A stretch of DNA of 64,000 nt from Escherichia coli. Its GTDB lineage: Bacteria; Pseudomonadota; Gammaproteobacteria; Enterobacterales; Enterobacteriaceae. Under the pieces are notes generated by a model. It was not told where the DNA came from, did not search any database, and saw only the letters and a program-made list of their open reading frames with translations. This document shows, one piece after another, positions 17,102-36,075 of this stretch. The stretch lies in the NCBI RefSeq assembly GCF_045037415.1, contig NZ_CP173438.1, one strand, 5' to 3'. Positions within the stretch are counted from its first letter, which is position 1. Every line of letters starts with the position of its first letter. Made by a program: the position numbers and the translations under genes.

Positions 17102-17516
17102 AGATTATTCCCTTTGCAATGAAGCATTTCCCTTCTCCCTGTAGTAATACAGACATAAGGTATCATCTCATTTTCTCAATAAAAATAAGAAAATTTGAGC
17201 TTCCTTTAAGATAATTCGACAAGTATACCATATAAATAGTCGGCATAAATAAAATGTCAACAATAAAATCAGGGATGATACCGATGATTTATAGTTTCAA
17301 ATGAGCACTATAAGTTTTCTCACTAATCCTACAGGCGTAAGAATTGTATTGCAAAAGCCGCGGTTTAGTCCTCTGTTGTTTTTTTTGCACCTCATTTAAA
17401 TTAGCCCTCCAACGTTCCTGGGATAATGTGCAAAACATGCACTGTGTTTGATATGAGGAATGAATACTCTTTTCATTCAATTCATAAATTTCATCTATGC
17501 GAAATGAGAGATAATA

Positions 17517-18680
17517 GTGGAACAGATTAATTCAAATAAAAAACATTCTGACAGAAGAAAATATTTTGCTTTGTTAGCGGTAGTTTTATTTATTGCGCTT
17601 TCAGGTGCCTATGCCTATTGGTCAATGGAATTAAAAGACATGATTAGTACAGATGACGCCTATGTCACGGGAAATGCAGATCCAATTTCTGCACAAGTCT
17701 CAGGCAGTGTCACTGTCGTTAATCATAAAGATACGAACTACGTTCGACAAGGTGACATTTTAGTTTCACTGGATAAAACTGATGCCACTATCGCACTCAA
17801 TAAAGCTAAAAATAATCTGGCAAATATTGTTCGGCAAACGAATAAACTATACTTACAGGATAAACAATACAGTGCCGAAGTCGCTTCAGCACGTATTCAG
17901 TATCAACAATCTTTAGAAGATTATAACCGTCGTGTGCCTTTAGCGAAGCAAGGGGTTATTTCAAAAGAAGCGCTGGAGCATACCAAAGATACGTTAATAA
18001 GTAGCAAAGCGGCATTGAATGCTGCTATCCAGGCTTATAAAGCGAATAAAGCTTTAGTAATGAACACACCATTAAACCGTCAGCCACAAGTCATTGAAGC
18101 TGCAGATGCAACCAAAGAAGCCTGGTTGGCGCTTAAACGTACGGATATTAAGAGTCCGGTTACCGGTTATATTGCCCAGAGAAGTGTTCAGGTCGGCGAA
18201 ACAGTGAGTCCCGGACAATCGTTAATGGCTGTCGTACCGGCGCGTCAAATGTGGGTTAATGCCAACTTTAAAGAAACACAACTCACGGATGTACGGATTG
18301 GTCAATCGGTCAATATTATCAGCGATCTTTATGGTGAAAATGTTGTGTTTCATGGTCGGGTGACAGGGATCAATATGGGAACCGGCAATGCGTTCTCCTT
18401 ATTACCTGCACAAAATGCGACAGGGAACTGGATCAAAATCGTTCAGCGTGTACCGGTTGAAGTTTCTCTGGATCCAAAAGAACTCATGGAACACCCTTTG
18501 CGCATTGGTTTATCGATGACTGCAACTATTGATACGAAGAATGAAGACATTGCCGAGATGCCCGATCTGGCTTCAACCGTGACGTCCATGCCTGCTTATA
18601 CCAGTAAGGCTTTAGTTATCGATACCAGTCCGATAGAAAAAGAAATTAGCAACATTATTTCGCATAATGGACAACTTTAA
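17517..18680 (+). CDS. emrK: Multidrug efflux membrane-fusion protein EmrK (387 aa)
   Basis: ORF 387 aa, EmrA-like periplasmic adaptor; divergent from evgA. Confidence 0.9.
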   Translation: MEQINSNKKHSDRRKYFALLAVVLFIALSGAYAYWSMELKDMISTDDAYVTGNADPISAQVSGSVTVVNHKDTNYVRQGDILVSLDKTDATIALNKAKNNLANIVRQTNKLYLQDKQYSAEVASARIQYQQSLEDYNRRVPLAKQGVISKEALEHTKDTLISSKAALNAAIQAYKANKALVMNTPLNRQPQVIEAADATKEAWLALKRTDIKSPVTGYIAQRSVQVGETVSPGQSLMAVVPARQMWVNANFKETQLTDVRIGQSVNIISDLYGENVVFHGRVTGINMGTGNAFSLLPAQNATGNWIKIVQRVPVEVSLDPKELMEHPLRIGLSMTATIDTKNEDIAEMPDLASTVTSMPAYTSKALVIDTSPIEKEISNIISHNGQL

Positions 18681-20218
18681 TGGCAATCACTAAATCAACT
18701 CCTGCACCATTAACCGGTGGGACGTTATGGTGCGTCACTATTGCATTGTCATTAGCGACGTTTATGCAAATGTTGGATTCCACTATTTCTAACGTCGCAA
18801 TACCGACAATATCTGGCTTTCTGGGAGCATCAACAGACGAAGGTACCTGGGTTATCACCTCGTTTGGCGTAGCAAATGCCATTGCGATCCCTGTTACCGG
18901 CAGGCTGGCACAAAGAATAGGCGAATTAAGGTTATTTTTACTTTCAGTAACCTTTTTTTCGCTGTCTTCATTAATGTGTAGTTTATCGACCAATCTTGAT
19001 GTGCTGATATTTTTTAGAGTCGTTCAGGGGTTAATGGCGGGGCCGTTAATTCCACTGTCACAGAGTTTATTATTAAGGAATTATCCACCAGAAAAAAGAA
19101 CATTTGCTCTGGCATTATGGTCAATGACCGTGATTATCGCTCCGATATGTGGGCCGATATTGGGCGGCTATATTTGCGATAACTTTAGCTGGGGTTGGAT
19201 ATTTTTAATCAATGTCCCTATGGGGATTATCGTCCTGACATTATGCTTAACCTTACTTAAAGGACGAGAAACTGAGACTTCACCGGTCAAAATGAATCTA
19301 CCAGGACTGACCCTGTTAGTGCTCGGTGTTGGTGGCTTGCAAATTATGCTTGATAAAGGGCGCGATCTGGATTGGTTCAACTCGAGTACAATAATACTAC
19401 TAACAGTAGTATCAGTTATTTCTCTGATCTCTTTAGTCATTTGGGAGTCGACCTCAGAGAATCCGATTCTTGACCTCAGTTTGTTTAAGTCCCGTAATTT
19501 CACCATTGGTATTGTGAGTATCACATGCGCGTATTTATTTTACTCTGGAGCGATAGTTCTTATGCCGCAGTTACTCCAGGAAACGATGGGGTATAATGCG
19601 ATATGGGCCGGACTTGCCTATGCGCCCATCGGTATCATGCCGCTATTAATATCACCTTTGATAGGACGTTATGGCAACAAAATTGATATGCGGTTGTTGG
19701 TGACATTTAGTTTTTTGATGTATGCGGTTTGCTATTACTGGCGTTCTGTGACATTTATGCCAACGATTGATTTTACAGGCATCATTTTGCCACAGTTTTT
19801 TCAGGGATTCGCCGTTGCCTGTTTCTTTTTACCCTTAACAACGATTTCGTTTTCAGGCTTGCCAGATAATAAATTTGCCAATGCCTCGAGTATGAGTAAT
19901 TTTTTTCGCACCTTGTCAGGATCAGTTGGTACGTCGTTGACAATGACACTGTGGGGACGCCGCGAATCGTTACACCATAGTCAGTTGACAGCAACCATCG
20001 ATCAATTTAACCCCGTGTTTAATTCATCGTCACAAATTATGGATAAATACTATGGTTCGCTTTCAGGAGTTCTTAATGAAATTAATAATGAAATAACTCA
20101 GCAGTCACTTTCTATTTCTGCAAATGAGATTTTCCGTATGGCGGCTATTGCTTTTATCTTACTTACGGTTTTGGTTTGGTTTGCGAAACCGCCGTTTACA
20201 GCGAAAGGCGTTGGGTGA
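18680..20218 (+). CDS. emrY: MFS multidrug efflux pump EmrY (512 aa)
   Basis: ORF 512 aa, 14-TM EmrB-like; start overlaps emrK stop. Confidence 0.9.
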   Translation: MAITKSTPAPLTGGTLWCVTIALSLATFMQMLDSTISNVAIPTISGFLGASTDEGTWVITSFGVANAIAIPVTGRLAQRIGELRLFLLSVTFFSLSSLMCSLSTNLDVLIFFRVVQGLMAGPLIPLSQSLLLRNYPPEKRTFALALWSMTVIIAPICGPILGGYICDNFSWGWIFLINVPMGIIVLTLCLTLLKGRETETSPVKMNLPGLTLLVLGVGGLQIMLDKGRDLDWFNSSTIILLTVVSVISLISLVIWESTSENPILDLSLFKSRNFTIGIVSITCAYLFYSGAIVLMPQLLQETMGYNAIWAGLAYAPIGIMPLLISPLIGRYGNKIDMRLLVTFSFLMYAVCYYWRSVTFMPTIDFTGIILPQFFQGFAVACFFLPLTTISFSGLPDNKFANASSMSNFFRTLSGSVGTSLTMTLWGRRESLHHSQLTATIDQFNPVFNSSSQIMDKYYGSLSGVLNEINNEITQQSLSISANEIFRMAAIAFILLTVLVWFAKPPFTAKGVG

Positions 20219-20325
20219 TGGAAAAAGAGGAGGCTATAGCAGGTAAAACGGCAGAATCTTAAGTCTGCGTCATCGGCAGCATCGCTCACCCAGGGAAAGG
20301 ATGGTGATGCTGCGTTGAAACGTTA

Positions 20326-21654
20326 TTAACGGCCTTTTGCCAGATATTGATTCATCTCTTCTTCCGGCACCATTCCACCTCCCGTCGCCCACACCAGATG
20401 AGTGGCATTACGCAGTTGTTCTGCGCTGAAACCGTGCATCTGTTGGTAACTTACTGATGCGCACACGCGCTGAGGTCCGGCCATACCCGCCAGTGCCGAA
20501 GGTTCAAGACGAATACCTTCTTCCTGCGCCAGCCAGCCAAGCATGTCATACATGGTTTGATCGCTAAGGGTATAGAAGCCATCCAGCAGACGCTCCATCG
20601 CCCGCCCGACAAAGCCCGATGCGCGACCAACCGCAAGGCCATCGGCAGCGGTAAGGTTGTCGATGCCAATATCCTGAACAGAAATCTGATCGTGTAATCC
20701 GGTATGGACGCCTAATAACATACACGGGGAGTGTGTTGGTTCGGCAAAAAAGCAGTGAACATGATCGCCAAACGCCAGTTTAAGTCCGAATGCGACGCCA
20801 CCAGGACCACCGCCAACACCACACGGCAGATAGACAAATAGAGGGTTATCAGCATCGACGATACGGCCTTGCTGGGCAAATTGCGCTTTAAGACGCTGGC
20901 CAGCGACGGAATACCCAAGGAACAACGTGCGGGAATTCTCGTCATCAATAAAGAAACAGTTCGGGTCAGACTGCGATGCTTTACGTCCTTCCTCGACAGC
21001 AACACCATAATCTTGCTCATATTCCACGACCGTAACGCCATGGCTGCGCAGTTTCGCTTTTTTCCATGCCCGGGCATCAGCAGACATATGCACTGTCACC
21101 TTAAAGCCAATGCGGGCGCTCATAATACCGATTGATAACCCCAGATTTCCGGTTGAGCCCACAGCAATGCTGTATTGGCTAAAGAACTGTTTAAACTCCG
21201 GAGAAAGCAGTTTGCTGTAGTCATCTTCAAGCGTCAGCAACCCTGCTTCCAGAGCCAGTTTTTCTGCATGTGCCAGGACTTCATAAATCCCGCCGCGTGC
21301 TTTTATGGAGCCGGAAATAGGCAAATGGCTATCTTTTTTCAGTAACAGTTGCCCGCTGATCGGTTGCTGATATTCCTTTTCCAGCCGTTTTTGCATAGCC
21401 GGAATGGCAACCAGTTCTGATTCAATAATCCCCCCAGTGGCAGCAGTTTCAGGAAATGCTTTTGCCAGATAGGGGGCAAAACGAGATAAGCGCGCATGGG
21501 CGTCCTGAACATCCTGTTCGGTCAGGCCAACATAAGGTAAACCTTCAGCCAATGAGGTCGTGCCAGGATTGAACCAAGTGGTTTCTTTAAGAGCAACCAG
21601 ATCCTTTACCAACGGATACTGGGCGATGAGCGAATTCATTTTAGCGTTTTCCAT
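20326..21654 (-). CDS. dsdA: D-serine ammonia-lyase DsdA (442 aa)
   Basis: ORF 442 aa [31 protein letters not shown]...; PLP-binding SGSIKARGG motif. Confidence 0.95.
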
Positions 21655-21671
21655 AGTACGTCTCTTTGCGC

Positions 21672-23009
21672 TTAGATGATAAATGACAGCAGGAATGTGC
21701 CCGCCAGAGCGATGACCGAAGCGATAAATGTCGCTGTCGTATAGTATTTAAATGTTTCATTGAGCGTAGCGCCGCAATATTGCTTCACCAGCCAGAAAAG
21801 CGAGTCCGTAACGATCGTGCAGCCAATCGCACCGGAACCGATAGCAATCGCAATAATTTCCGGGCTGATGTCGGGATACAGCGGCAGCATGGGGGCAACA
21901 ATTGCCGTTGCCCCCATCATTGCCACCGTAGCGGAGCCCACTGCAGCATGCAGAATAAGTGCCACCAACCAGGCCAGAAGAATCGGGTGCATATGCATAT
22001 TGGAGAGAATAACTGCCAGCGTATCAGCGAGACTGCTGCTTTTTAAAATGGCGTTGAATGCGCCTCCGGCCCCGATAATCAGCAAAATATTAGCAATAGA
22101 ACCGAAACCATTTTCCGTATGTGTGAGCATCGTCCCCATGCTCATATGCTGACGTATACCCAACACATAATAGGCGACAAACACGGCGATAAACATGGCA
22201 GTGATAGGGTTGCCAATAAACTCAAGCAAGGTATACAAACCACTCTCACGCGCCATATTCAATTCGGCAATCGTTTTAACCAACATCAGCGCAATGGGTA
22301 GCAGTATGGTGAATAACGTTGCGCCTAATGAAGGTAGTGTTTTTTCATCGCGAACTTTGAGATCGGCAAACTCTGTGGGTACAGGTTTAAAGGGCAGTCG
22401 TTGCCCCAGAAATTTAAGGAAAAGTGGGCCACCGATCAGTGATGCCATCAGCCCAACCAGCAAACCGTAGACGATCACCGAACCGATATCTGCGCCCAGC
22501 TTATTGGCAACATATAAAGCAGCCGGATGTGGGGGAACCACGCAGTGCACAGCCATCAATGCGGTACACAGCGGAATGGCCAGCTTTAACAATGAGGTAT
22601 TGGTTTTTTTGGCAATTGAAAAAGCCAGAGGAATCAATAGCACGACGCCCACTTCAACAAACAGCGTGATGCCGCAAATCAGGCCAACCAGCACCATAAT
22701 GACATCAGCCGAAAGCCACCGGCAGCGTTGAAGTGTCAGACCAATTCTTTCTGCGGCCCCGGATACTTCCATCATTTTTCCCAGTATCGTGCCAAGGCCG
22801 ATAACCGCAGCGAGGAACCCCAGCGTTCCGCCAATTCCACTTTCAATAGCATTTACCATATCCAGTGGCCCCATACCCATCATCGTTCCCACGAAGAAGC
22901 TGGCCAGCAACAGCGCCAGAAACGGGTGGAATTTGAACTTCACGATGGTCAGTACAATTAACACGATGCTGATAAGCAGCGTGCTCACAACCCAGATTTG
23001 AGAGTGCAT
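21672..23009 (-). CDS. dsdX: D-serine transporter DsdX (445 aa), GntP family
   Basis: ORF 445 aa [30 protein letters not shown]... Confidence 0.9.
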
Positions 23010-23226
23010 ATCTCACCTTCCCCTGTGATTAACCTGATGATATTGGACAAAAAAACAACGCAGGCTGACAAACGATAAAATTTGCCTTTCACATGAGCTA
23101 AATTGCATCAAGGGAGTGATTTACATCTAAAAATGAAGGTGAATTGAGATATGGTTCACTTTAGCTCACCTTACAGCTGAAATTTTGCCGCTATTTTTTT
23201 ACACTTAATAGAAAAATGAGGTGATT

Positions 23227-24162
23227 ATGGAACCCCTTCGTGAAATAAGAAATCGACTGCTTAACGGCTGGCAACTATCAAAACTGCATACTTTTGAAGT
23301 GGCTGCCAGGCATCAGTCTTTCGCCCTGGCGGCAGAGGAATTGTCGCTGAGCCCCAGTGCGGTAAGTCACCGTATCAATCAGCTGGAAGAAGAATTAGGT
23401 ATTCAGTTGTTTGTTCGTTCCCATCGCAAAGTGGAATTAACGCACGAGGGGAAACGCGTTTATTGGGCGCTAAAATCGTCGCTGGATACCCTGAATCAGG
23501 AAATTCTGGATATCAAAAATCAGGAGTTATCGGGAACGTTAACTCTGTATTCCCGGCCCTCTATCGCCCAATGCTGGTTGGTGCCCGCATTAGGTGACTT
23601 TACACGCCGATATCCGTCTATTTCGCTCACCGTGCTCACTGGTAATGACAATGTCAATTTGCAACGTGCCGGAATCGATTTGGCGATCTACTTTGATGAT
23701 GCGCCGTCAGCGCAACTGACCCATAACTTTCTGATGGATGAAGAAATCTTGCCAGTTTGTAGCCCGGAGTACGCTCATAGACATGATTTAACCAACACGG
23801 TAATTAACCTGCGTCACTGTACGTTGCTCCATGACAGACAGGCATGGAGCAACGACTCCGGTACGGATGAATGGCATAGTTGGGCGCAACATTATGCGGT
23901 TAATTTGCCGACATCTTCTGGAATTGGCTTTGATCGTTCTGATTTAGCCGTTATCGCCGCGATGAATCATGTTGGGGTGGCGATGGGAAGGAAACGCCTG
24001 GTACAAAAAAGGCTTGCCAGTGGTGAGCTCGTCGCGCCGTTTGGCGATATGACGGTGAAATGCCATCAGCATTATTACATCACCACATTACCGGGCAGGC
24101 AGTGGCCAAAAATTGAGGCATTTATTACTTGGTTAAGAGAACAGGTAAAAACCACTTCATAA
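23227..24162 (+). CDS. dsdC: LysR-type regulator DsdC (311 aa)
   Basis: ORF 313 aa trimmed to MEPLREIRNRLLNGWQLSKLHTFEVAARHQSF...; LysR HTH. Confidence 0.9.
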   Translation: MEPLREIRNRLLNGWQLSKLHTFEVAARHQSFALAAEELSLSPSAVSHRINQLEEELGIQLFVRSHRKVELTHEGKRVYWALKSSLDTLNQEILDIKNQELSGTLTLYSRPSIAQCWLVPALGDFTRRYPSISLTVLTGNDNVNLQRAGIDLAIYFDDAPSAQLTHNFLMDEEILPVCSPEYAHRHDLTNTVINLRHCTLLHDRQAWSNDSGTDEWHSWAQHYAVNLPTSSGIGFDRSDLAVIAAMNHVGVAMGRKRLVQKRLASGELVAPFGDMTVKCHQHYYITTLPGRQWPKIEAFITWLREQVKTTS

Positions 24163-24260
24163 TGAATAAGACCACGAGTTCCTGGTGTGCCTTATTCGGC
24201 ACTGCTAGTGCGAATTTAATAATTTACGGTTTTTACGTGGTTTTAGGGATAAACACAAGA

Positions 24261-24280
24261 ATGGTGTCCCCTGCAGGAAT
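24261..24280. repeat. Distal attachment-site repeat of the argW-integrated element
   Basis: ATGGTGTCCCCTGCAGGAAT is an exact 20-bp copy of the argW 3' end at 36076-36095. Confidence 0.8.
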
Positions 24281-24400
24281 GTGATTAATGAATTAAGAAA
24301 TTGATTTTTATGAATATAAAATTTTTATTGTCATAATTCTATACACTTAGTTATACACATAAGAAAAAATCAGTGATTTTTATGGACTGGGTGTATCTTC

Positions 24401-24490
24401 CCCAGCCCAGCCCAGCCCAGCCCAGCCCAGCCCAGCCCAGCCCAGCCCAGCCCAGCCCAGCCCAGCCCAGCCCAGCCCAGCCCAGCCCAG
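24401..24490. repeat. Pentanucleotide microsatellite (CCCAG)x18
   Basis: Read directly: 90 bp of perfect CCCAG units, then CCCCAACAAA. Confidence 0.95.
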
Positions 24491-24582
24491 CCCCAACAAA
24501 CCTAATGCAGTCTTTAGTTTACAAATTGTTACATATATTATTCGTCAAATTTCATTATTATCAGAGAGGTAATGACTCCAAC

Positions 24583-25086
24583 TTATTGATAGTGTTTTAT
24601 GTTCAGATAATGCCCGATGACTTTGTCATGCAGCTCCACCGATTTTGAGAACGACAGCGACTTCCGTCCCAGCCGTGCCAGGTGCTGCCTCAGATTCAGG
24701 TTATGCCGCTCAATTCGCTGCGTATATCGCTTGCTGATTACGTGCAGCTTTCCCTTCAGGCGGGATTCATACAGCGGCCAGCCATCCGTCATCCATATCA
24801 CCACGTCAAAGGGTGACAGCAGGCTCATAAGACGCCCCAGCGTCGCCATCGTGCGTTCACCGAATACGTGCGCAACAACCGTCTTCCGGAGCCTGTCATA
24901 CGCGTAAAACAGCCAGCGCTGGCGCGATTTAGCCCCGACATAGCCCCACTGTTCGTCCATTTCCGCGCAGACGATGACGTCACTGCCCGGCTGTATGCGC
25001 GAGGTTACCGACTGCGGCCTGAGTTTTTTAAGTGACGTAAAATCGTGTTGAGGCCAACGCCCATAATGCGGGCTGTTGCCCGGCAT
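24583..25086 (-). CDS. insB: IS1 transposase InsB (167 aa)
   Basis: [53 protein letters not shown]..., matches IS1 InsB. Confidence 0.95.
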
Positions 25087-25280
25087 CCAACGCCATTCAT
25101 GGCCATATCAATGATTTTCTGGTGCGTACCGGGTTGAGAAGCGGTGTAAGTGAACTGCAGTTGCCATGTTTTACGGCAGTGAGAGCAGAGATAGCGCTGA
25201 TGTCCGGCGGTGCTTTTGCCGTTACGCACCACCCCGTCAGTAGCTGAACAGGAGGGACAGCTGATAGAAACAGAAGCCAC
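25005..25280 (-). CDS. insA: IS1 InsA (91 aa)
   Basis: [43 protein letters not shown]..., matches IS1 InsA. Confidence 0.95.
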
Positions 25281-25528
25281 TGGAGCACCTCAAAAACACC
25301 ATCATACACTAAATCAGTAAGTTGGCAGCATCACCTATCAGAGATTAACAAGCATTGGCAAAGGTTGTCACTCAGTAATACTCACCATTATTAACTATTA
25401 TTCACCATTATTTAGTATTCAAATTCTTTGAATGAGTTTGAAAGTGCCAGTCTTTACGTATTAATTCTTCTGTGCAAGTATATATACACCCAATAGAGAC
25501 TAATTAAGTCTTAGTATAAATATCTAAT

Positions 25529-25788: not shown

Positions 25789-26649
25789 ATGGTTGACAAT
25801 GTTTTTAAGAAGAAATTGGCATCAATTAAGAACGAACATGTGTCGGTGTTAGATAGTTACAAAGTAAGATCATTTAAAGAGACTCATAGCGACACGGCCT
25901 GTATTGTGCGTATTATTGAAATATATTCACTGAATAAGCTGCGAGCTAAAGGTGAAAAGCTGTATTCACTTACGGGGTTAACAGTACCTGATACGGAAAC
26001 TGTGGCGAATGAGATCAACCTGCTCCTGAGCCGTTATGCCCAGTTGTGTCGTCAGGAAGAGGAAGAGTTATCTTTCCGGCAGCGTGAAGTGACAAATGCG
26101 GAAGTTGCATGGAAAAGCACATTCTCAAAAAACGGCGTCAGTAGCATTGCTGAAGCCAAAACGAATAAAATGGGGCATGCTGAACGAGCGGATGCTGAAC
26201 GGTATTACCATCTGGCTGTTTCCCGGTTGAATGAACAACATAGTCGATTGAGCACGATCAAGCTTTTGCCGGGAGTACTGGCCGATGAAGGAAACTACAT
26301 TGGGAAGGGAATCGATAAGCGTTTACTGAATATATTTCCTCAATCCGGCCAGATCCCTGCTGATTTTATTTCTGTATTTAATGACAGTGACGTTGTCCGT
26401 GATATTAAATTTATTACTGATGCACTCAAGTCTTTATCTGATTCCGTGAGTGAAATTATTAGTCGTTGTAGCGTTCCAACTGATCGTTATGTATTAAATA
26501 ACGGTGGAATGGCAAGAGCTATGGCTTACAGGGAGTACTATCGAGCAGATAATTATGTATTACGTTCAGTCGTAAGTGACCGGGATTATGTTGAGCATGT
26601 AATGAAATACAATCTGGTTACTGAGTACAAAAATAAAATCTTTTCTTAA
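25789..26649 (+). CDS. Hypothetical protein (286 aa) directly upstream of capsid-like gene; possible scaffold or capsid-remodelling protein
   Basis: ORF track only; consistent coding frame; function assigned by position, not by motif. Confidence 0.5.
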   Translation: MVDNVFKKKLASIKNEHVSVLDSYKVRSFKETHSDTACIVRIIEIYSLNKLRAKGEKLYSLTGLTVPDTETVANEINLLLSRYAQLCRQEEEELSFRQREVTNAEVAWKSTFSKNGVSSIAEAKTNKMGHAERADAERYYHLAVSRLNEQHSRLSTIKLLPGVLADEGNYIGKGIDKRLLNIFPQSGQIPADFISVFNDSDVVRDIKFITDALKSLSDSVSEIISRCSVPTDRYVLNNGGMARAMAYREYYRADNYVLRSVVSDRDYVEHVMKYNLVTEYKNKIFS

Positions 26650-26671
26650 ATACTTAAAAAGGTGAAAAACT

Positions 26672-27676
26672 ATGTATGCCTTCAAAACTGAAAGGCCGGA
26701 CGCAGCACGTCGTTATCATAATAAATTCGTCACTGGCACTAACTATCAGGAAGAATCAAACAGACGCTTTGCATTAAGCGAACCTACTGAAAATATACTG
26801 CGTACCTCAATTCTGGAATCCGGGTGGCTTATTAAAAATATTACCCTACGTGATGTTAACGCCGTGTCAGGTAATGCCGTCAATATTGGTGCCAGTGAAC
26901 TGTATACCGGACGTGTGGATGGTGGCCGTTTCCACAAAAAAATGGCAATCAATGGTACGGAGTTCTTTCTGACAGAGACGGATACCTGCGCCCGGATCAG
27001 CTATTCCGATATGTCTCATATTTACCATACCGGCGTGCCGGATGAGTTTGAGAAAACGGTTGAGAGCTTTTTTGCCCAGGCATATGCGCTGGACATGCTG
27101 CGGGTCGGTTTCAACGGTGTGTCGATTGCAAATACTACAAACCCGGAAATCAATAAAAAAGGCGAGGATGTCAATATTGGCTGGCATGCACTGGCGAAAG
27201 CCTACGGGAACGGAAAGCAAATCATCTCTGAGCCTGTCACTCTGGGAGAGACTGGCACCTGGAAAAATATTGATGCTCTGGCCAACCATCTGATTACAGA
27301 GCTTATTGCTGAGCAGTTTCGTGAAGATCCTCGTCTGGTTGTACTGGTTGGGGCAGAGCTGGCAGCACATCAACGCCTGAAGTTATTTAATGCCGCAGAC
27401 CGCCCGTCTGATGTGAATGCGGCACAGATGGCTACAAGTTCTGTTGCTGGCCGCTTTGCGTTTATTCCCCCGTTTATGCCGGGTAAGCGTCTGGCAGTAA
27501 CGACGCTGGATAATCTGCATATTTACACTCAGGCGATAACACGCTGGTTTCGTGCTGAGTTTGATGATGAAAGCAGTGAATACGTGCATTCCTACCTGCG
27601 CAATGAAGGTTATGCACTCGGTGAACCTGAACTGTACGCGGCTGTTGATGAGTGCACCCTGACGTTTGCGGATTGA
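26672..27676 (+). CDS. P2-GpN-like major capsid protein homolog (334 aa)
   Basis: Blocks FALSEPTENILRTSILES..., MLRVGFNGV...NIGW..., DALANHLITELIAEQFREDPRLVVLVGAEL and TLDNLHIYT align by eye with my recollection of P2 GpN; needs profile confirmation. Confidence 0.45.
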   Translation: MYAFKTERPDAARRYHNKFVTGTNYQEESNRRFALSEPTENILRTSILESGWLIKNITLRDVNAVSGNAVNIGASELYTGRVDGGRFHKKMAINGTEFFLTETDTCARISYSDMSHIYHTGVPDEFEKTVESFFAQAYALDMLRVGFNGVSIANTTNPEINKKGEDVNIGWHALAKAYGNGKQIISEPVTLGETGTWKNIDALANHLITELIAEQFREDPRLVVLVGAELAAHQRLKLFNAADRPSDVNAAQMATSSVAGRFAFIPPFMPGKRLAVTTLDNLHIYTQAITRWFRAEFDDESSEYVHSYLRNEGYALGEPELYAAVDECTLTFAD

Positions 27677-27905
27677 CTTAGCGACAGAAAGACCCGCTCA
27701 GAGGCGGGTTCGTTTACAGCATCAGGAAAAATGAAGAACTATTTTTAAGCAGAGGCTTAAGCATGCCAGCGTTAATTAATCCAGGCAATGATCAGTTTTC
27801 GGTTATAAATTTCTTGCCTCACCAGGAATGCGCGGGATATAGTTTAAAGGTTGCCGCAAAATCGGCAGCCGGGCGTAGGAACCCGTGTTATCTGAAGGCG
27901 ATACT

Positions 27906-27929
27906 ACACGCGCTAGGCGTGTTTTTTTG
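27906..27929 (+). terminator. Rho-independent terminator inside the apparent non-coding leader upstream of the primase operon
   Basis: ACACGC-GCTAG-GCGTGT hairpin followed by TTTTTTT. Confidence 0.55.
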
Positions 27930-28149
27930 TGTCGCAGCTTTGACTCACCTAAAATTTATGGTGTGGTGGCTGATTGTATTTTTTTATTTTTTACGCCACA
28001 TCATCAGAATTATGGTAGTCCAGGCGGGGCAGCTTTCGGGCTGGCCGGTATCCTTCAGAGCCGGTATTCCTACCCCCGTCTGGGCTACCACCCATGAGCG
28101 TAGGAACTCCGGTGGTAGCGTTACCCGCTATCTGAAGGAGGTTGCCATT

Positions 28150-28353
28150 ATGGCTACAGTCCCTGCTTTATCTCACCCTGAATTTACCTTTGTCTTTCTG
28201 GCTGTCCGCCGTACAGACCGTGATGCCCGTCCACGCCCTGTGCGTGTAATCGCAGAATGCGAGCATGCTGCACGCCTTAAACTTGCCACTGAATTTATCC
28301 TGAGCTTTGCTGCCCGTATCCCTGTGAAAAGAGCCGGGGAGGTGGTTGCATGA
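28150..28353 (+). CDS. Small hypothetical protein (67 aa), first gene of a translationally coupled operon
   Basis: ATG at 28150 preceded by GAAGGAGG; stop overlaps next start (ATGA); the 196-aa ORF-track call 27763-28353 is treated as spurious upstream of this Met. Confidence 0.4.
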   Translation: MATVPALSHPEFTFVFLAVRRTDRDARPRPVRVIAECEHAARLKLATEFILSFAARIPVKRAGEVVA

Positions 28354-28586: not shown

Positions 28587-28989
28587 TAATCAAAATTTAA
28601 AGGCGCATGCTTTACGAACAGCAGTCTTACGCTACTACATTGCTGATGCATTCATTTCCTTAATGGTGCGTGTTCATAATGAACCTGTTTATATTGAAGA
28701 TGGCGAACGAATAGAACTCTCCCACGAAAAAGTGGTGAGTAATATTATTTACCATATTGAAATGCCGTGGGTGAATGAGTTTGGGGCTGATGCTGGTTGC
28801 ATACTGGCCGCAGAGAAACTGGAAAAAATGCTTAAACCAGGCTTTATGTCAGAAAATATTCGCCTGTCAGTTTTTGGTGTCACAGAGATGCGTGAGGTTT
28901 ACCGGGATATTATTTTCGGAGCACCTGATGGCGAACTACCCGAAGGTTTTGAATTTGTGAAGCCGGAAGGTCAGGAGGTGCTGCTGTGA
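28579..28989 (+). CDS. Hypothetical protein (136 aa) immediately upstream of primase
   Basis: ORF track; 4-nt overlap with primase start suggests coupling. Confidence 0.5.
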   Translation: MNNNQNLKAHALRTAVLRYYIADAFISLMVRVHNEPVYIEDGERIELSHEKVVSNIIYHIEMPWVNEFGADAGCILAAEKLEKMLKPGFMSENIRLSVFGVTEMREVYRDIIFGAPDGELPEGFEFVKPEGQEVLL

Positions 28990-31673
28990 AAACACCGTCT
29001 GTATCCACGATTTCCGGAGCTGCAATTGGGCGCTGGCCTTATATCCTGTCAGCATTAGGTATTAAAGTACCGTCCGCAGGACATCATGGGGCTTGCCCTG
29101 CCTGTGGTGGAAAAGATCGTTTTCGACTGGACGATAAAGCGGGGCGAGGGACGTGGTTTTGTAATCAGTGCGGTCATGGCGATGGTCTTGATCTGGTTCG
29201 TCTGGTGACAGGAAGAAAGATAAAAGAAGTCGCCGGGATGGTATCTGAGGCGCTTGCATTACCAGAAATACAGGAGAAGCCCGCATTGCCAGCCAGGAAA
29301 AAGGCCGCAGGAAAAGAAGCGGGCGCGGAGCGATATACCAGACTCAGACAGCAGTCCTGCAATGGTGAGCCGGTCTATCTGACAAATAAGAGCTTACACG
29401 GGTATTCACTTCCCTTGCTGTCACAGCCTTTGAATCTGGCCGGAATAACATTTTCCACCGGTTCATTACTGCTGCCTTTGACGGATATTTCCGGGAATAT
29501 TACTGGTGGCCAGCTTATCAATCCTGACGGGGATAAAAGTCTGCTGCCCGGTAGCCAGCTGTCTGGCGCATTCATTGCCCTGACCGATATACCCGCTGAA
29601 ACACCTGAACAGGTGATTATCACTGAGGGTTTTGCCACGGCGCTTACCGTCAGTCTGCTGACTGAAGGATGGATCGTGGCGGCTGTCGCTGCCACCAATT
29701 TACTGAAGGTGACGGAGCAGATCCGAAAACGCTGGCCGGAAACCCGGATCATTCTGGCCGGAGATAATGATCTGGCTGACGGCAAAGAAAACACCGGGCG
29801 TATTCAGGCAGAGAAAGCCGCCAAAGCGGTGGATGGCTGGGTAACGCTCCCTCCGGTACGCCATAAGGCTGACTGGGATGATTATCGGCAGGAAGTGGGG
29901 AAAGAACGGGCGAGAGATGCCTTTCGTGAAGAAATGACGCTGCATGGCAAAGGGCAGACCCGTTTACCAGAAGGGTTCCGGCTGACAAAAGAATATTTGT
30001 GGTACGACAAGCTGGTTAATAAGTCTGATGGTGATACAGAGATACGTAATATCAAAATTTGCAGTCCGTTGCGGGTGACGGCAATCACCAGTGATGCTGA
30101 TGGAAGTAATTACGGGCGTTTGCTGGAATGGGAAGATACCAACGGAAACAGCCGTAAATGGGCAATGCCGATGGAGATGCTGGGCGGTAGCGGGGAAGAA
30201 CTGCGCCGCGTTCTGCTGGTTAACGGGCTTTCTTACATCAACATTAACGGCATGGCCAGAGCATTCCTGATGGAATATATCTCGCTGTGTAAACCGGACA
30301 GAAAAGTAACCTGTGTGAATAAAACTGGCTGGCACGGCGGGGTTTACGTTCTCCAGGATGAAGTGATAGGGCGCGAAGCCCAGTCAGTCATCTTACAAAC
30401 ATCGAGTGTGCAGGGGCGTGATTTTCGTGTCAGCGGCACATCAGAGGGCTGGCGTGAAAATATAGGCCGTTATTGCATAAAGAATGCCCGTCTTGCCTTT
30501 GCGGTGAGTCTGGCATTTGCTGCCCCCCTTCTGAAACTGGTTGGTATCGGCGGTGGAGGTTATCACCTCAAAGGGGAATCCACAGACGGTAAAACCACGA
30601 CGATGAAAGTGGCTGCATCAGTATGTGGTGGAACAGATTTCTGGCATACGTGGCGGGCGACGGGGAATGCCTTAGAAGGAACGGCGAGCCGCCGCAATGA
30701 TGCCACGCTGATGCTGGATGAAATCCGGGAGGTTGACGGCAGGGAGGCGGGAAATATCGCTTATATGCTGGCTAACGGGCAGGGCAAAGCCAGAGCCAGA
30801 ACAGATGGTTCGGTAAGGGAAACCAACCGCTGGAATCTGTTGTTTCTGTCTACCGGGGAACTGTCACTGGTAGAGCATGCGGCAAGCGCCGGGGAACGTA
30901 CGTATGCCGGGGTTGAGGTCAGAATGATCCAGATCCCAAGCGATTCGGGCAAGTATGGCGTGTTTGAAGAACTTCATGGCTTCAGTAGCGGGAAAACCCT
31001 GGCTGAGCATCTTGAGCAGCACGTAGCGCATTATCATGGTGCACCATTCCGCGACTGGCTGTATTGCCTGACCGCTGATCTGCCGGAACTGACCAGTCAG
31101 GCGAAAGCCTTATTGAAAGAGTATACCCGAAGGCTGACGCCGGAAAATGCCGGGAATCAGGTTGGCCGGGCTGTTACCCGTTTTGCTCTGGTTGCGATGG
31201 CCGGGGAGCTGGCCACAAAAGCGGGCATCACAGGATGGCCGGAGGGAGAGGCCTTTCGTGCCGCTCAAAGCTGTCTGGCTGCATGGATGGCTGACCGGGG
31301 CCATACAGCTAATCAGGAAGATAAAGCGGCACTTGAACAGGTTCGGGACTTCATGACGCGTAATCAGTTCAGTCGGTTTGCTGACTGGAATGACGACAGG
31401 AACCGGCCTGTTTCAATGATGGGATTCAGAAAAGTCGATAAAGGAGACAACGTGACAGAGCCGGTTGTGACGTTCTACGTTCTCCCGTCAGGCTGGAAGG
31501 AGATCTGTAAGGGATTTGACTCGCGTAAGGTGGCCAGGTTGTGTGTGGACGCGGGCTGGCTGAAACCCGGTGAAGATGGCCGGACGCAAAACAGCATTCG
31601 CCTGCCAGAAATAGGGCTTAAACGTGTGTACCAGTTCAATACACAGGTACTGGGAAGCGCTGAACCTGAGTGA
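28986..31673 (+). CDS. P4-alpha-like zinc-binding primase-helicase (895 aa)
   Basis: N-terminal CPACGG...FCNQCGHGDG zinc-finger pair; Walker A GESTDGKTT; overall satellite replication-protein architecture. Confidence 0.8.
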   Translation: MKTPSVSTISGAAIGRWPYILSALGIKVPSAGHHGACPACGGKDRFRLDDKAGRGTWFCNQCGHGDGLDLVRLVTGRKIKEVAGMVSEALALPEIQEKPALPARKKAAGKEAGAERYTRLRQQSCNGEPVYLTNKSLHGYSLPLLSQPLNLAGITFSTGSLLLPLTDISGNITGGQLINPDGDKSLLPGSQLSGAFIALTDIPAETPEQVIITEGFATALTVSLLTEGWIVAAVAATNLLKVTEQIRKRWPETRIILAGDNDLADGKENTGRIQAEKAAKAVDGWVTLPPVRHKADWDDYRQEVGKERARDAFREEMTLHGKGQTRLPEGFRLTKEYLWYDKLVNKSDGDTEIRNIKICSPLRVTAITSDADGSNYGRLLEWEDTNGNSRKWAMPMEMLGGSGEELRRVLLVNGLSYININGMARAFLMEYISLCKPDRKVTCVNKTGWHGGVYVLQDEVIGREAQSVILQTSSVQGRDFRVSGTSEGWRENIGRYCIKNARLAFAVSLAFAAPLLKLVGIGGGGYHLKGESTDGKTTTMKVAASVCGGTDFWHTWRATGNALEGTASRRNDATLMLDEIREVDGREAGNIAYMLANGQGKARARTDGSVRETNRWNLLFLSTGELSLVEHAASAGERTYAGVEVRMIQIPSDSGKYGVFEELHGFSSGKTLAEHLEQHVAHYHGAPFRDWLYCLTADLPELTSQAKALLKEYTRRLTPENAGNQVGRAVTRFALVAMAGELATKAGITGWPEGEAFRAAQSCLAAWMADRGHTANQEDKAALEQVRDFMTRNQFSRFADWNDDRNRPVSMMGFRKVDKGDNVTEPVVTFYVLPSGWKEICKGFDSRKVARLCVDAGWLKPGEDGRTQNSIRLPEIGLKRVYQFNTQVLGSAEPE

Positions 31674-31699
31674 TTATCGCGTGAGTCTTATTTTTATGA

Positions 31700-31888
31700 G
31701 GTAACACTGGTAACAGAGGTAACACCCGTTACTGATGCGGTTCTTCAGTGTTACCAGTCAAAAATACTGACTGGTAACAGAGGTAACAAAAAATGGTGTG
31801 TTACCACGCGTTACCTCTTGATTTTGCTAACTGGTAACAGATTAAATCCTTTTAAATCAATAGCGTTACACGTGTTACCAGTGTTACA
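31700..31888. promoter_or_regulatory. Iteron cluster, candidate origin of replication of the element
   Basis: At least 12 copies of GGTAACA / TGTTAC(C/A) in both orientations within ~190 bp just 3' of the primase gene. Confidence 0.55.
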
Positions 31889-31955
31889 CGTTCAGAACAA
31901 GAGGTAGGGATCCAAATCCCTTCTTCTGGCGGGCAACAGTATAGGGCACAGAACG

Positions 31956-32228
31956 ATGAAGATGATGAGAATGTACTGCCCCACATGTCAGGCAGTAGCA
32001 CGGATAGGTAAAACAAACAGGAAACACCCACAACTGTACGATGTGTACTGCTATTGCTCTAATGTGGAGTGCGGTCACTCGTTTGTGATGAATGTTGCTT
32101 TCTCCCATTCCGTTAGTCCAAGCGCGCTGAACGGGCAGGGAAGGGTTAAAGAGCTGATTGATGCAATTCCACCCGAGGAACGGGAAAAGGCTTTAAAGTT
32201 GCTGCTGGCTGCGCAAAAGAATGGGTAA
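31956..32228 (+). CDS. Ogr/Delta-family zinc-finger late-gene activator-like protein (about 87-90 aa)
   Basis: ORF MKMMRMYCPTCQAVARIGKTNRKHPQLYDVYCYCSNVECGHSF...; C-x2-C ... C-x4-C spacing typical of Ogr/Delta. Confidence 0.65.
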   Translation: MKMMRMYCPTCQAVARIGKTNRKHPQLYDVYCYCSNVECGHSFVMNVAFSHSVSPSALNGQGRVKELIDAIPPEEREKALKLLLAAQKNG

Positions 32229-32907
32229 AGTATGCGTCGGGAATGGCCGATCTGTTCCCGGAACCTGAACACAGGATTTCAGTTTATACGGTCATAAAAT
32301 TATTATTTTTCAACTGGTTATCTTCTTCATGTTTCACAAACCTTCATAAAATCACACACCTAAAATTAATTATCCATTTAATATCATAGAGTTGCGTATT
32401 CAGGCCATAGATTCGACGGACAGTAAAACTGAAAAAAAATGAATTTCTTTTCATTCTTTTCAGTTCCTGTATCGCAGTACATCTCGAGGACTGGCACGGA
32501 CTGGCGGTATCGTTTGTAAAAAATCCAGGCTGAAAATTTTTAGTGATATGAAAACCGCAGGCGGGTGCGGTGTAGTGCCGTTTTGGTCTGTCGAGCGTAT
32601 ATTTTCCTTTTTCACGATTGCTGCATATCAAAACGAATGTGCAGATATCAGGCCGTGTCAAACCGTGAATCGTGGAGCCTAAATGCCCAAACTACGTTTG
32701 TAGACCTAGCTAGGGGAAGGTTTCCACATATACTGCTACCTATCTTCCAGTCGCTGGTGAGGATCAAGGTAAGCTAACTGGTGAACAAGAAAAGTACTTT
32801 CGTATCTTGCGTACTCGTTTTTTTTGATTAGTATGTACAGGTAGTAACTGGATGGTGAGAATTCGTCATAACTTATCAAATTGCATGATGTTTATAGAGT
32901 ATGAGTA

Positions 32908-33789
32908 ATGAGTCATAATAAAAAGGAATATGCTAAATTTTTCCGTCGCCCCATTTTTTCATCCTTAGCAAAAGGTAAGGATATTTCGGATTTATTTGGG
33001 AGTTTTGATTCTTACTGCTATGAAACACTGTTTTCAAACAATGATAATAATGAACATGAGATTTCACTAAGGGATTTATTTACATCATTATATGATTTTT
33101 TGCGTCTGAATTATAGAAATGAATATGTTTATAAGACAGCACTTGTCAATAAAATAATATTCGGTAAGCACAGCCCAAAAACAAGTTCGTCGTCCATAGA
33201 GTTACCAATTAAAAACTCTATAGTGGATGTTGCGGTGTTTAATGGTACGTCTACAGCTTACGAGATTAAGACAGAGTATGATTCACCAAAAAGGTTGATT
33301 ACTCAAGCCCCTGATTATTTGGATGTTTTTGATAAAGTGTATATAGTTACACATCCAGAGTATGCAAGTAAATATTGTGCTTTAAATCTCCCCAGAGTGG
33401 GAGTTATGGTTTTGAATAAAAAAGATCAATTGAGTGTCATTAAGGAGGCAGATTCAAATATTGATTATATTAAAAGTGACAGCTTGTTTTCAGTTCTTAG
33501 AAAGGAAGAGTTCTTAGCTATAATAGAAGATTACACTTCAACTAAAATAAATATGCCTAACGGATTGGTTTATGAATATTGTAAAGAGATATTCATGCAG
33601 ATGCCATTAAACATAGCAAATAAATACTTTATCTCTGCTATGAAAAAAAGATGTAACGATAAAGTTTTTTTGGATTATATTTATTCTCTTCCAGCATGTT
33701 TACGTGTTTTAGGTTATGCAACACCATTATCAAGAAAGCAAAAAGAATTCATCATGAATTTGATGGATGTAAAAATTAAAATTTGTTGA
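32908..33789 (+). CDS. Hypothetical protein A (293 aa), AT-rich cargo gene with PD-(D/E)xK-like motif
   Basis: ORF track; IVDVAVFNGTSTAYEIKTE (D107 ... E119-x-K121) resembles a restriction-endonuclease-fold catalytic core; strong AT bias unlike flanking DNA. Confidence 0.6.
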   Translation: MSHNKKEYAKFFRRPIFSSLAKGKDISDLFGSFDSYCYETLFSNNDNNEHEISLRDLFTSLYDFLRLNYRNEYVYKTALVNKIIFGKHSPKTSSSSIELPIKNSIVDVAVFNGTSTAYEIKTEYDSPKRLITQAPDYLDVFDKVYIVTHPEYASKYCALNLPRVGVMVLNKKDQLSVIKEADSNIDYIKSDSLFSVLRKEEFLAIIEDYTSTKINMPNGLVYEYCKEIFMQMPLNIANKYFISAMKKRCNDKVFLDYIYSLPACLRVLGYATPLSRKQKEFIMNLMDVKIKIC

Positions 33790-33810
33790 TATCCTCAGGA
33801 GTTGTAAGTT

Positions 33811-34761
33811 ATGTATAGCCCATATTTGTATGCGAGAAGTACAGAGTTATTATGCCTTAGGGACCTCGTTGCGAAGGGAGTTAGCCTAAATGGTCTGCTA
33901 CCAATTTTAGAACCAATTAACGTCAATACGAGAAATTTATTAACATGTTTAAATGTTTGGAATTCTGACATAATTGTTATCCTTAATCCTTATCAGGAAG
34001 ATTTTTCTTCACACAATAACGTCTTAACTTTAAATCAAAATTTATCAAGTGTATTAACAAATAAAAATAATATCATCTCTGGATATCTTATTCAGCCCAA
34101 TACAACGATTAATGATATTAATAATTGGTTGAATGCTAACTTAAATAGACGAGTTGCACTTCTATATGATAATCCATCATTATCCAACTCTGATATTCAG
34201 TTGTTGGCGACAAATCAATTGATTAGTTATCATGTTGTTTTAAATAATAAAATGCTTCCTAATCAGTGCGCTCTTCTTCCTTTGTCGAAGTTAATTATTA
34301 TTAGCGATAACTTTAGAAAGTTAGCAAAAAATGCTGATTATAATGGGCCGGAACTTTTCACGCACGCACATCAATTCGTGGGACAAAATTACTTAGGATT
34401 TGGCGATTATACAATTACTGGCCAGGTACTAGATCTTGGAGGTGGTCAACCTTCTGCTGTTGCCGCACATTTGGTGTTCAAGAATTTACAAGCGAATACA
34501 GTTTGGATTCGTCATTTTGTATCAAGCAACACGCAACGAGGAAGTTCAAATGTTACTGCAAAATTTTTAGATGTTTCAGATCAAATTACAAATCTTGTTC
34601 CCCAACATCCAACCCAGTTTGGCAGCAACATTGGTCTTAACTATTATTATTACAATAGTCAACCAACTGTAAGGCATTTCCCTGGGTTGCCAAAAAACAA
34701 ACAGTATCAAATTACTCACCATATTTGTTTCATGCTGGATTTAATAGCAGGTCGTATTTAA
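33811..34761 (+). CDS. Hypothetical protein B (316 aa), AT-rich cargo gene, Asn/Ser/Leu-rich, no motif I can assign
   Basis: ORF track; AGGAG Shine-Dalgarno 8 nt upstream; 21-bp gap from gene A; 3' end overlaps integrase 3' end convergently. Confidence 0.6.
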   Translation: MYSPYLYARSTELLCLRDLVAKGVSLNGLLPILEPINVNTRNLLTCLNVWNSDIIVILNPYQEDFSSHNNVLTLNQNLSSVLTNKNNIISGYLIQPNTTINDINNWLNANLNRRVALLYDNPSLSNSDIQLLATNQLISYHVVLNNKMLPNQCALLPLSKLIIISDNFRKLAKNADYNGPELFTHAHQFVGQNYLGFGDYTITGQVLDLGGGQPSAVAAHLVFKNLQANTVWIRHFVSSNTQRGSSNVTAKFLDVSDQITNLVPQHPTQFGSNIGLNYYYYNSQPTVRHFPGLPKNKQYQITHHICFMLDLIAGRI

Positions 34762-35916
34762 TAAGCTAGCGTACCATTCCATCATTACTTGTCGATCTTT
34801 AATATATTGCGCATGATTGTAAGTACCTCGAATAGAGTTCTTATCAACATGCGCAAGCTGCATTTCAATCCAGGCACTTTCAAACCCATGCTCATGCAAG
34901 ATGGTGCTCATGGTATGCCTGAAACCGTGACCCGTTAACCGACCGTGATAACCCAGTAGTTTTATCACTTTGTTGATGCTGGCTTCGCTCATTGGTTTAC
35001 TGACGTCATTCCGGCCAGGGAAAACGAGGCTGTAATTCCCTGTTATTTCTTGCAGCTTTTTCAGGATATTGATCGCCTGAGTTGATAACGGAACCAGATG
35101 GGGGCGGCGTTTCTTCATCCGTTCTTTGGGGATCTCCCATAAGGCATTATCTAAATCAAACTCAGCCCATTCCGCTGCACGTAGTTCAATTGTTCGCACG
35201 CCTGTTAGCATCAACAGCTGCGTGGCGTATTTGGTAACTAAACTGCCCTGATAGTTATCCAGAGCATTAACGAACTCGGGCAACTCGCTTTCAGTCAGGA
35301 ACGGGAAGTGTTGGGTTTTAGGTTTGTTGAGTGCGATAGCTAAATCGGGTGCAAAATTATACTTTGCTCTACCAGTGGCAACAGCATAACGAAGCACTTC
35401 ACCACAGCGGCGGCGGATCTTACTGGTTTGCTCTAGCGCACCTCTTTTCTCTATTTTTTGCAGGACGGTTAGCAGTTCTAATGGTTCAATCTGCTCAATT
35501 GGGCGCTGGCCGATAAAAGGAAAAATATCCTTTTCCATACAATTGAGAACCTCTTTTGCATAACCCTCTGACCAGGTGGCTTTTTTCGATGAGTGCCATT
35601 CTCTGGCCACAGACTCAAAGCTGTTCTCATGCGCGAACTGCAAAGCAATCTTATCTGCTTTTCTGGCTTCACTTGGGTTTATCCCGTTGGCTAACATCGA
35701 ACGCGCTTCATCACGTTTGGTACGTGCCTGTGCCAACGACACATCGCCATATACGCCAAAGGAAATCATCTTAGGCTTACCTGCAAAGCGATAGCGAAAA
35801 CGCCAGCCTTTACTGCCCGCTGTGTCGATCAGGAGTGATAGCCCCATACCATCGTTAAGCGTATAGGGTTTGTCCTTCGGTTTTGCTCTTTTTATTTGGA
35901 TGTCAGATAGCAGCAT
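34741..35916 (-). CDS. P4-family tyrosine integrase (391 aa)
   Basis: ORF 407 aa trimmed to MLLSDIQIKRAKPKDKPYTLNDGMGLSLL...; C-terminal HxxR ... Y catalytic pattern; adjacent to tRNA. Confidence 0.85.
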   Translation of the reverse strand: MLLSDIQIKRAKPKDKPYTLNDGMGLSLLIDTAGSKGWRFRYRFAGKPKMISFGVYGDVSLAQARTKRDEARSMLANGINPSEARKADKIALQFAHENSFESVAREWHSSKKATWSEGYAKEVLNCMEKDIFPFIGQRPIEQIEPLELLTVLQKIEKRGALEQTSKIRRRCGEVLRYAVATGRAKYNFAPDLAIALNKPKTQHFPFLTESELPEFVNALDNYQGSLVTKYATQLLMLTGVRTIELRAAEWAEFDLDNALWEIPKERMKKRRPHLVPLSTQAINILKKLQEITGNYSLVFPGRNDVSKPMSEASINKVIKLLGYHGRLTGHGFRHTMSTILHEHGFESAWIEMQLAHVDKNSIRGTYNHAQYIKDRQVMMEWYASLLNTTCY

Positions 35917-36075
35917 GTGTATAGAAAAAAGATCGAACTCAGTTATACACAATGTTATACGCAAAGATGTATAGATTCCATTAGAAATAATGGTACTTTG
36001 CTGGACGAGTATAAGGAGATGATATCAGTTAAAACAGTGAGTTATGGAATTAATTGAACTTAGTGAGAAGTGTTC

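Follow-up and report, generated by a model that had tools for sequence, protein, structure and literature searches.

The 64,000-nt stretch of Escherichia coli DNA analysed here (contig NZ_CP173438.1; hereafter, the window) comes from a strain resembling sequence type 131 (ST131) and contains an 11.0-kb P4-like satellite prophage integrated at tRNA-Arg(CCT) (argW). A complete copy of the insertion sequence (IS) IS1 is situated in this prophage between its distal att core repeat and gene alpA, whose product is a homologue of the P4 protein Vis. Very probably, this is an ordinary, recent and simple insertion of an IS1A-type element into non-coding DNA, and the core parts of the satellite for excision, replication and packaging appear to have been spared. 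No evidence was found against the identity of the element as IS1 or against simple insertion as its mode of entry.

The feature belongs to the IS1 family by all the sequence criteria tested (length, inverted repeats, A6C frameshift and 9-bp duplication). It differs from the IS1A of E. coli K-12 MG1655 in 2 of 768 nt (766/768 identical, 99.7 %), and its 23-bp terminal inverted repeats are imperfect in the manner of the canonical IS1, agreeing at 18 of 23 positions. The reading frames of insA and insB are intact, and the InsAB′ fusion reconstructed across the AAAAAAC motif has 232 aa. The NCBIfam model NF033558 (transpos_IS1) matches both open reading frames (ORFs), InsB with 145.6 bits (cut-off 100) and InsA alone with 91.3 bits, as expected because InsA is half of the fusion. 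The coding capacity and the inverted repeats of this copy are thus intact.

IS1 is flanked by direct repeats of the sequence TATCAGAGA, identical at 9 of 9 positions (the chance for one such pair being 4^-9), and the junction sequence is CATTATTATCAGAGAGGTAATGACTCCAAC. When IS1 and one copy of TATCAGAGA were deleted in silico, the resulting 854 bp showed zero mismatches with the corresponding locus of E. coli JJ1886 (ST131), which is free of IS1 and contains TATCAGAGA in single copy. The sole difference over these 854 bp is the length of a microsatellite, which is 30 bp (six CCCAG units) shorter in JJ1886. The chromosomal flank at 20000-24463 (4,464 bp) is also 100 % identical to that of JJ1886, and outside IS1 the two satellite copies, compared over 10.3 kb, are distinguished only by a single gap within 7,058 bp and a single mismatch within 3,299 bp. 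IS1 prefers AT-rich targets, and the G+C content at the target (26 % to the left and 31 % to the right of the insertion, versus 48 % for the window) fits this preference. An IS1A-type element would have transposed by simple insertion into this non-coding stretch of 26-31 % G+C, producing the 9-bp duplication.

The frequency of the insertion was estimated with a 273-bp query spanning the reconstructed empty site, searched against 5,426 complete E. coli genomes. The uninterrupted site was present in 434 of them, in every case as one single piece and in 417 at an identity of at least 99 %; none of these 434 genomes carried a site split by IS1. Additionally, an IS1-containing query did not cover at least 80 % of its length in any record from the complete E. 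coli genomes, and the left IS1 junction was not found in a collection of metagenome contigs. Related viral contigs mostly end at alpA and yielded no upstream sequence of the att-alpA type. The top matches of a first search pointed to IS1 near dsdC in strains L9 and EC-07; the L9 copy, which was the one examined, is an independent insertion within dsdC. Given the exact empty site in JJ1886 and the lack of carriers among the 5,426 genomes, the insertion is genuine, simple and recent, and is confined to this strain or to a narrow lineage. The earlier note on this DNA, made from the sequence alone, had described a complete IS1 with intact insA and insB, bounded by a 9-bp duplication and deriving from a simple and probably recent transposition; the 768-bp copy with its perfect duplication, the mismatch-free flanks and the 434 uninterrupted sites bear out this description. 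An IS1 insertion with a 9-bp duplication is nevertheless a textbook event, already known in kind, and only its site is specific.

No gene is broken by IS1, whose target is non-coding DNA. The element lies 287 bp from the distal att core and 200 bp from the ATG of alpA (Table 1), and at a distance of 7 kb from both a cluster of iterons and a cos-like site. The att cores, the integrase gene int, the iteron cluster, the cos-like site and a conserved block with the putative alpA promoter are all untouched. The insertion separates att, a CCCAG microsatellite and a conserved non-coding block, designated block A, from an array of phased repeats and the alpA promoter, moving block A and the microsatellite 777 bp away from alpA. 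These positions agree with the previous claim that IS1 parts the microsatellite from the alpA promoter region. A second predicted consequence concerns size, because the excised circle would increase from 11,038 bp without IS1 to 11,815 bp with it (+7 %). The two E. coli relatives that could be measured, either IS-free or IS-corrected, are of ~11.09 and ~11.13 kb in spite of their different cargo. The IS-free members of the family thus have sizes near 11.0-11.1 kb, and a gain of 7 % over this narrow range might matter for packaging into a small capsid.

Table 1. Features of the IS1 copy, its target and the surrounding satellite prophage, with positions in the window.
Feature	Position	Strand	Remarks
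Distal att core repeat, 20 bp	24261-24280		ATGGTGTCCCCTGCAGGAAT; the two copies are 100% identical
TATACAC repeat pair			Conserved, 60-80 bp from att core; candidate Int arm site; lies between att and the microsatellite, at a distance from IS1
(CCCAG)18 microsatellite	24401-24490	plus	77 bp left of the insertion; copy number varies among strains
Conserved non-coding block A	24518-24567		TTTACAAATTGTTACAT...TTCGTCAAATTTCATTATTATCAGAGA; continues as TTAACA, now at 25345-25350; IS1 at its right edge
Target-site duplication, left copy	24559-24567		TATCAGAGA (9 bp)
IS1 (IS1A-type), 768 bp	24568-25335	minus	From its boundaries and comparison with K-12 IS1A; sole IS1 copy within the window
IRR end of IS1	24568-24590		GGTAATGACTCCAACTTATTGAT; left end
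insB, 167 aa	24583-25086	minus	Single substitution, S65R, relative to K-12 InsB1
insA, 91 aa	25005-25280	minus	GTG start; product identical to K-12 InsA1
AAAAAAC (A6C) motif	25023-25029	minus	Programmed -1 frameshift leading to the InsAB′ transposase
IRL end of IS1	25313-25335		Right end
Target-site duplication, right copy	25336-25344		TATCAGAGA (9 bp)
Phased A/T-rich repeats of ~10 bp	25380-25430		TACTCACCAT TATTAACTAT TATTCACCAT TATTTAGTAT; between IS1 and the alpA promoter; read from sequence
Conserved non-coding block B	about 25452-25495		Holds the putative alpA core promoter
Putative alpA core promoter	25453-25481	plus	-35 TTTACG (25453-58), 17-nt spacer, TG (25473-74), -10 AAGTAT (25476-81)
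TGT-N12-ACA dyad	25471-88		Overlaps the putative alpA promoter
alpA, 75 aa	25544-25771	plus	P4 Orf88/Vis homologue (46% identity, E 6e-22); excisionase/regulator PHROGs; RefSeq annotation
286-aa gene			Between alpA and the capsid gene; no family assignment
P2-family major capsid gene, 334 aa	26672-27676
isrK and C4/CI-type RNA	27850-28095		Rfam
Two small genes			Between the C4/CI-type RNA and the primase gene
Primase gene	28986-31673		Zn-ribbon/Toprim/DUF927
GGTAACA/TGTTACC iteron cluster	31686-31902		Dense array of direct and inverted repeats, immediately after the primase gene; similar to the type I iterons of P4 (GGTGAACA)
ogr/delta-like gene	31956-32228		Followed by a non-coding stretch
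cos-like region	32424-32605	plus	Follows the ogr/delta-like gene and precedes the cargo, an arrangement shared with P4; resembles both ends of the Cronobacter phage ESSI-2 record
cos-like core 16-mer	32560-32575		GGCGGGTGCGGTGTAG
Cargo pair sce7726/sce7725	32908-34761
Tyrosine integrase gene	34741-35964	minus	Adjoins tRNA-Arg
Proximal att core	36076-36095		ATGGTGTCCCCTGCAGGAAT; overlaps the 3′ end of tRNA-Arg(CCT), 36077-36151

The cos of phages P2 and P4 (GGCGAGGCGGGGAAAGCAC) did not show any match in the window with up to 3 mismatches. A BLAST comparison of the P4 cos junction against the satellite produced chance-level matches only, and the reconstructed att-alpA region did not match any of 50,697 phage records. 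The non-coding stretch after the ogr/delta-like gene does match P2-like phages of the ESSI-2 group. In Cronobacter phage ESSI-2, this match extends up to the final base of the record and continues from base one, and the two record ends have in common a 15-nt stretch, GCGGGTGCGGTGTAG. The 16-mer at the core of this cos-like region is conserved exactly in the seven family loci that extend past the ogr/delta gene (7/7; from E. coli, E. marmotae, Klebsiella and Cronobacter), always after that gene. Within the same 16-mer, the published record of ESSI2_ev040 contains an Illumina Nextera adapter and i5 index (AGAGTAGA-TCGTCGGCAGCGTCAGATGTGTATAAGAGACAG; 29624-29665 of the locus), which we infer to be an assembly contaminant marking a virion DNA end that was joined during assembly. 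In P4-like elements, cos is found between delta and the cargo hotspot beside int (PMC8628076). The ends of the ESSI-2 record, the exact 16-mer, the adapter and this P4-like location together suggest that the packaging site of the satellite is most probably at 32.56 kb, 7 kb away from IS1. By its sequence match, this candidate site for the terminase of a P2-like helper would be of the type of the ESSI-2-like Peduoviridae and not of the P2/P4 type.

Nine of the ten copies of GGTAACA/TGTTACC in the satellite are clustered at 31700-31873, and the tenth is at 31172, inside the primase gene; the array probably corresponds to the replication origin or to crr. By analogy with P4, whose ori is upstream of vis, an origin at the insertion point was also considered, and was discarded because the att-alpA region does not contain an iteron cluster, but only a single partial TGTTAC at 24527.

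The region upstream of alpA was aligned for nine family members, counted as seven genera, from Escherichia (four, of E. coli and E. marmotae), Klebsiella, Salmonella, Enterobacter, Scandinavium and Cronobacter. The likely alpA promoter is in block B, where CTTTAC and a TG dinucleotide are invariant in 9/9 relatives and AAGTAT is present in 8/9 (AAGCAT in Cronobacter). This block has the layout of a putative sigma-70 promoter with an extended -10, with a predicted start ~50 nt upstream of the ATG of alpA. The TGT-N12-ACA dyad overlapping it was evaluated as proof of an Ogr/Delta-type late promoter and rejected, since there are three such dyads in the satellite, about as many as expected by chance, and none in the intergenic positions of ESSI-2; for block B, this interpretation is retained as a secondary one only. 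On either reading, sigma-70 or dyad, the likely alpA promoter would lie 110-145 bp to the right of IS1 and be intact. Between IS1 and block B, the phased repeats have equivalent arrays in the relatives, with repeat sequences that differ between subfamilies.

To the left of the insertion, block A is conserved in 8/9 of the aligned relatives, with the Cronobacter copies lacking its right half. No convincing promoter could be read in block A, and no known RNA family matched across the empty site in Rfam, where the only hit was sub-threshold and located elsewhere. A short phase-variable ORF that would span both the microsatellite and block A, with 105 codons open in the window and in JJ1886, was considered as the reason for the conservation. 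It was ruled out by an in-frame TGA in Enterobacter, a 1-nt indel in the block of Scandinavium and the out-of-frame arrangement of several strains; the Enterobacter stop and the Scandinavium indel indicate that block A is not coding. The microsatellite always occupies the same place, just upstream of block A, and its sequence is not conserved: it is (CCCAG)n in E. coli, with n = 12, 16, 18 or 29, (CCTCCAG)n in Klebsiella, Salmonella, E. marmotae and Enterobacter, with n up to 14+7, and (CCCAGCT)3 in Scandinavium, and there is no repeat in Cronobacter. The unit length is 5 or 7 nt and in no case divisible by 3; on the strand of alpA the units are rich in C, so that the opposite strand has G-tracts. 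These features suggest a contingency or structure-forming element.

Certain observations weigh against an insertion without consequences. Because it borders a non-coding block conserved in 8/9 relatives, IS1 may have split or displaced a functional cis element, and the conservation of block A does run 6 bp past the insertion point (TTAACA/CTAACA). Besides, the promoter, origin and cos assignments come from sequence comparison only. The earlier note would have had its reading refuted by IS-free relatives devoid of any functional sequence spanning the insertion point; the relatives do not give this picture, as the conserved block A ends there. The strongest rival explanation, which we consider unlikely, is that block A and the phased repeats constitute one operator array for a helper or satellite protein, so that its splitting by IS1 would inactivate induction and leave the satellite effectively immobilised. 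Apart from the conservation of block A at the edge of the insertion, phased repeats occur on both sides of the site in the E. coli, Klebsiella and Salmonella copies, and P4 has three 10-bp repeats with TTAAAG just upstream of the P_LL dyad and of vis, the homologue of alpA. P2 Cox reportedly activates P_LL of P4 from tandem cox boxes located upstream. Block A and the equivalent region of P4 also have in common the 10-mer TTACAAATTG, a weak coincidence that could be due to chance. However, no protein is known to bind block A or the phased repeats, and in ESSI2_ev040, the candidate helper relative, the repeat motifs, which are similar to Cox boxes, are neither present in the cox-C region nor enriched anywhere. 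Moreover, the length variation of the microsatellite shows a lack of constraint on the spacing upstream of block A, the left part of block A is still intact beside IS1, and the Cronobacter copies lack its right half. In a broader version, alpA would be switched on by helper or satellite proteins acting through a hitherto undescribed cis-regulatory module, formed by a phase-variable C-rich microsatellite, block A and the phased repeats, and IS1 would have split this module. This is a speculation to which we assign a low probability; if true, the strain would be a natural uninducible mutant that maps the module.

The other alternatives are weaker. IS1 could have a direct effect on the expression of alpA, through an outward hybrid promoter formed at IRL or through a block to read-through, with the excision cascade being de-repressed or silenced. 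The ends of IS1 are said to be able to form hybrid promoters, and the IRL end contains an outward TTGGCA (25322-25327), but the TTAACA situated 17 nt downstream is a poor -10 (2/6) and a promoter scan did not report any hybrid promoter at the IRL junction. Genes insA and insB are transcribed leftwards, away from alpA, and would supply no obvious promoter to it, while the native conserved promoter block is still in place. Since IS1 reads away from alpA and no usable hybrid promoter is evident, direct activation is unlikely, and we give very little credit to a direct effect of any kind. The disruption of a packaging site, raised in the earlier note, is suggested only by the location of IS1, close to an end of the prophage and within an extended non-coding region; with the P2/P4 cos absent from the window, the interrupted region unmatched in phage records and a better candidate at 32424-32605, it is extremely improbable. 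Similarly, no positive evidence was found for the immobilisation of the element that the note had envisaged, the cos-like site, iterons, att cores, int and putative alpA promoter being untouched. E. coli has multiple copies of IS1, which short-read assemblies often place wrongly, and the junction was seen in no other genome or metagenome contig, as could be expected from a misplaced repeat. Nevertheless, an assembly error would not yield two clean junctions with a perfect 9-bp duplication that is single-copy in the empty site, and an artefact is hardly credible. A simple insertion sparing the core functions is thus the preferred explanation, and the only plausible effects of IS1 would be on upstream regulation and on genome size. 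Uncoupling of an upstream signal from alpA is possible, in that any input reaching the alpA promoter from block A or beyond would now come from 777 bp farther.

The satellite itself has an integrase gene beside the tRNA, flanking att repeats, and homologues of alpA/vis, of the alpha-type primase and of delta/ogr. The N-terminal domain of the primase is 38 % identical to P4 alpha (E 2e-49), whereas its helicase part differs and is of the DUF927 type. The match of the ogr/delta-like gene to P4 delta is weak (E 2e-4), and Pfam Ogr_Delta is recorded for its relatives. An immunity region of the CI-RNA type is also present, with Rfam matches to C4 (81 bits) and isrK (69 bits) and 80 % nucleotide identity to positions 8285-8707 of P4 (cI region). 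The core set of P4-like elements comprises int, alpA, alpha, epsilon, delta, sid and psu (PMC8628076). None of the ORFs scanned had a PHROG or NCBIfam match to Sid, Psu or Epsilon, and the 286-aa protein did not show a significant BLASTP match to Sid. Because these three proteins were not found, the element is best called a P4-related variant, rather than a canonical P4-like member.

Other observations were made on this family of satellites. In place of sid and psu, the region at 25789-27676 contains the element's own P2-family major capsid gene, whose 334-aa product is 48 % identical to the capsid protein of ESSI2_ev040. The 286-aa gene has no match in Pfam, PHROG or NCBIfam, is restricted to Enterobacteriaceae and is always located between alpA and the capsid gene; it may code for a scaffold or size determinant. 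An ORF annotated in RefSeq as Icd-like (27763-28353) overlaps, on the same strand, isrK (27850-27927) and the C4/CI RNA (28008-28095), in the region 80 % identical to P4 cI, and at least the 5′ part of this "protein" probably represents an RNA immunity locus. A P4-type defence hotspot lies between the cos-like site and int, where the cargo changes from relative to relative: the window has sce7726/sce7725 there, and the relatives have retron Ec48, an ATP-dependent nuclease, an AAA_15/AAA_21 pair, a DprA-like protein plus a hydrolase, or DUF5343; the sce7726 family annotation is shared by P4 cII. The distal att core of E. coli SC434 is cut to AGGAAT (12290-12297 of its locus) right after the dsdC stop codon, so most of one att repeat is lost and this satellite copy is probably fixed in place. 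A second architecture occurs in Yokenella, Cedecea and Franconibacter, where int, a 259-272-aa gene and a 66-73-aa gene are co-oriented and directly upstream of the 286-aa gene; here the 66-73-aa gene occupies the position of alpA without a precomputed Phage_AlpA hit, and att does not adjoin it.

The IS1 insertion matters little in itself, being a textbook kind of event private to one strain, although it provides a marker that tags a sublineage of ST131-like E. coli. It can also be viewed as a natural experiment in which block A and the microsatellite have been parted from the alpA promoter, and comparison with IS-free relatives could show whether the upstream region controls induction. The surrounding satellite is of more interest than IS1, on account of a microsatellite that is conserved but varies in length, a P2-type capsid gene of its own and an ESSI-2-type cos-like site. 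The candidate cos, origin-like repeats and promoter that could be placed in this poorly characterised P4-related family should be useful for its annotation.

Insertion of IS elements into this satellite family is common, as three other copies are also hit. JJ1886 contains an ISEc23/IS66 block (locus 20417-23526) at the equivalent of window positions 32382-32392, ~30 bp upstream of the cos-like region; in strain N3, ISEc31 splits the primase gene (locus 17478-18691); and in the Scandinavium copy an IS3-family element (locus 350-1479) ends exactly at the microsatellite upstream of alpA. Unlike the IS1 in the window, these belong to other IS families and occupy other sites, and only that of N3 clearly destroys a gene. 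Compared with the IS1A of K-12, the copy in the window has the same length of 768 bp, imperfect 23-bp inverted repeats, insA/A6C/insB layout and 9-bp duplication in AT-rich DNA, and differs in two nucleotides that result in the single InsB substitution (S65R); its chromosomal position, in contrast, was found in 0 of the 5,426 complete E. coli genomes. The satellite resembles P4 in its tRNA-adjacent tyrosine integrase, Vis/AlpA homologue, CI/C4-type RNA, primase domain with Zn-ribbon and Toprim, P4 type I-like iterons and ogr/delta-type zinc-finger gene, as well as in its size of ~11 kb and in having a cos-like site next to variable defence-gene cargo beside int. It differs from P4 in that sid, psu and epsilon were not detected, and a major capsid gene of the P2 family is present instead, together with the uncharacterised gene of 286 aa; in that its left operon is inverted relative to int, so that att adjoins alpA and not alpha; and in that its cos-like site matches those of the ESSI-2-like Peduoviridae and not that of P2.

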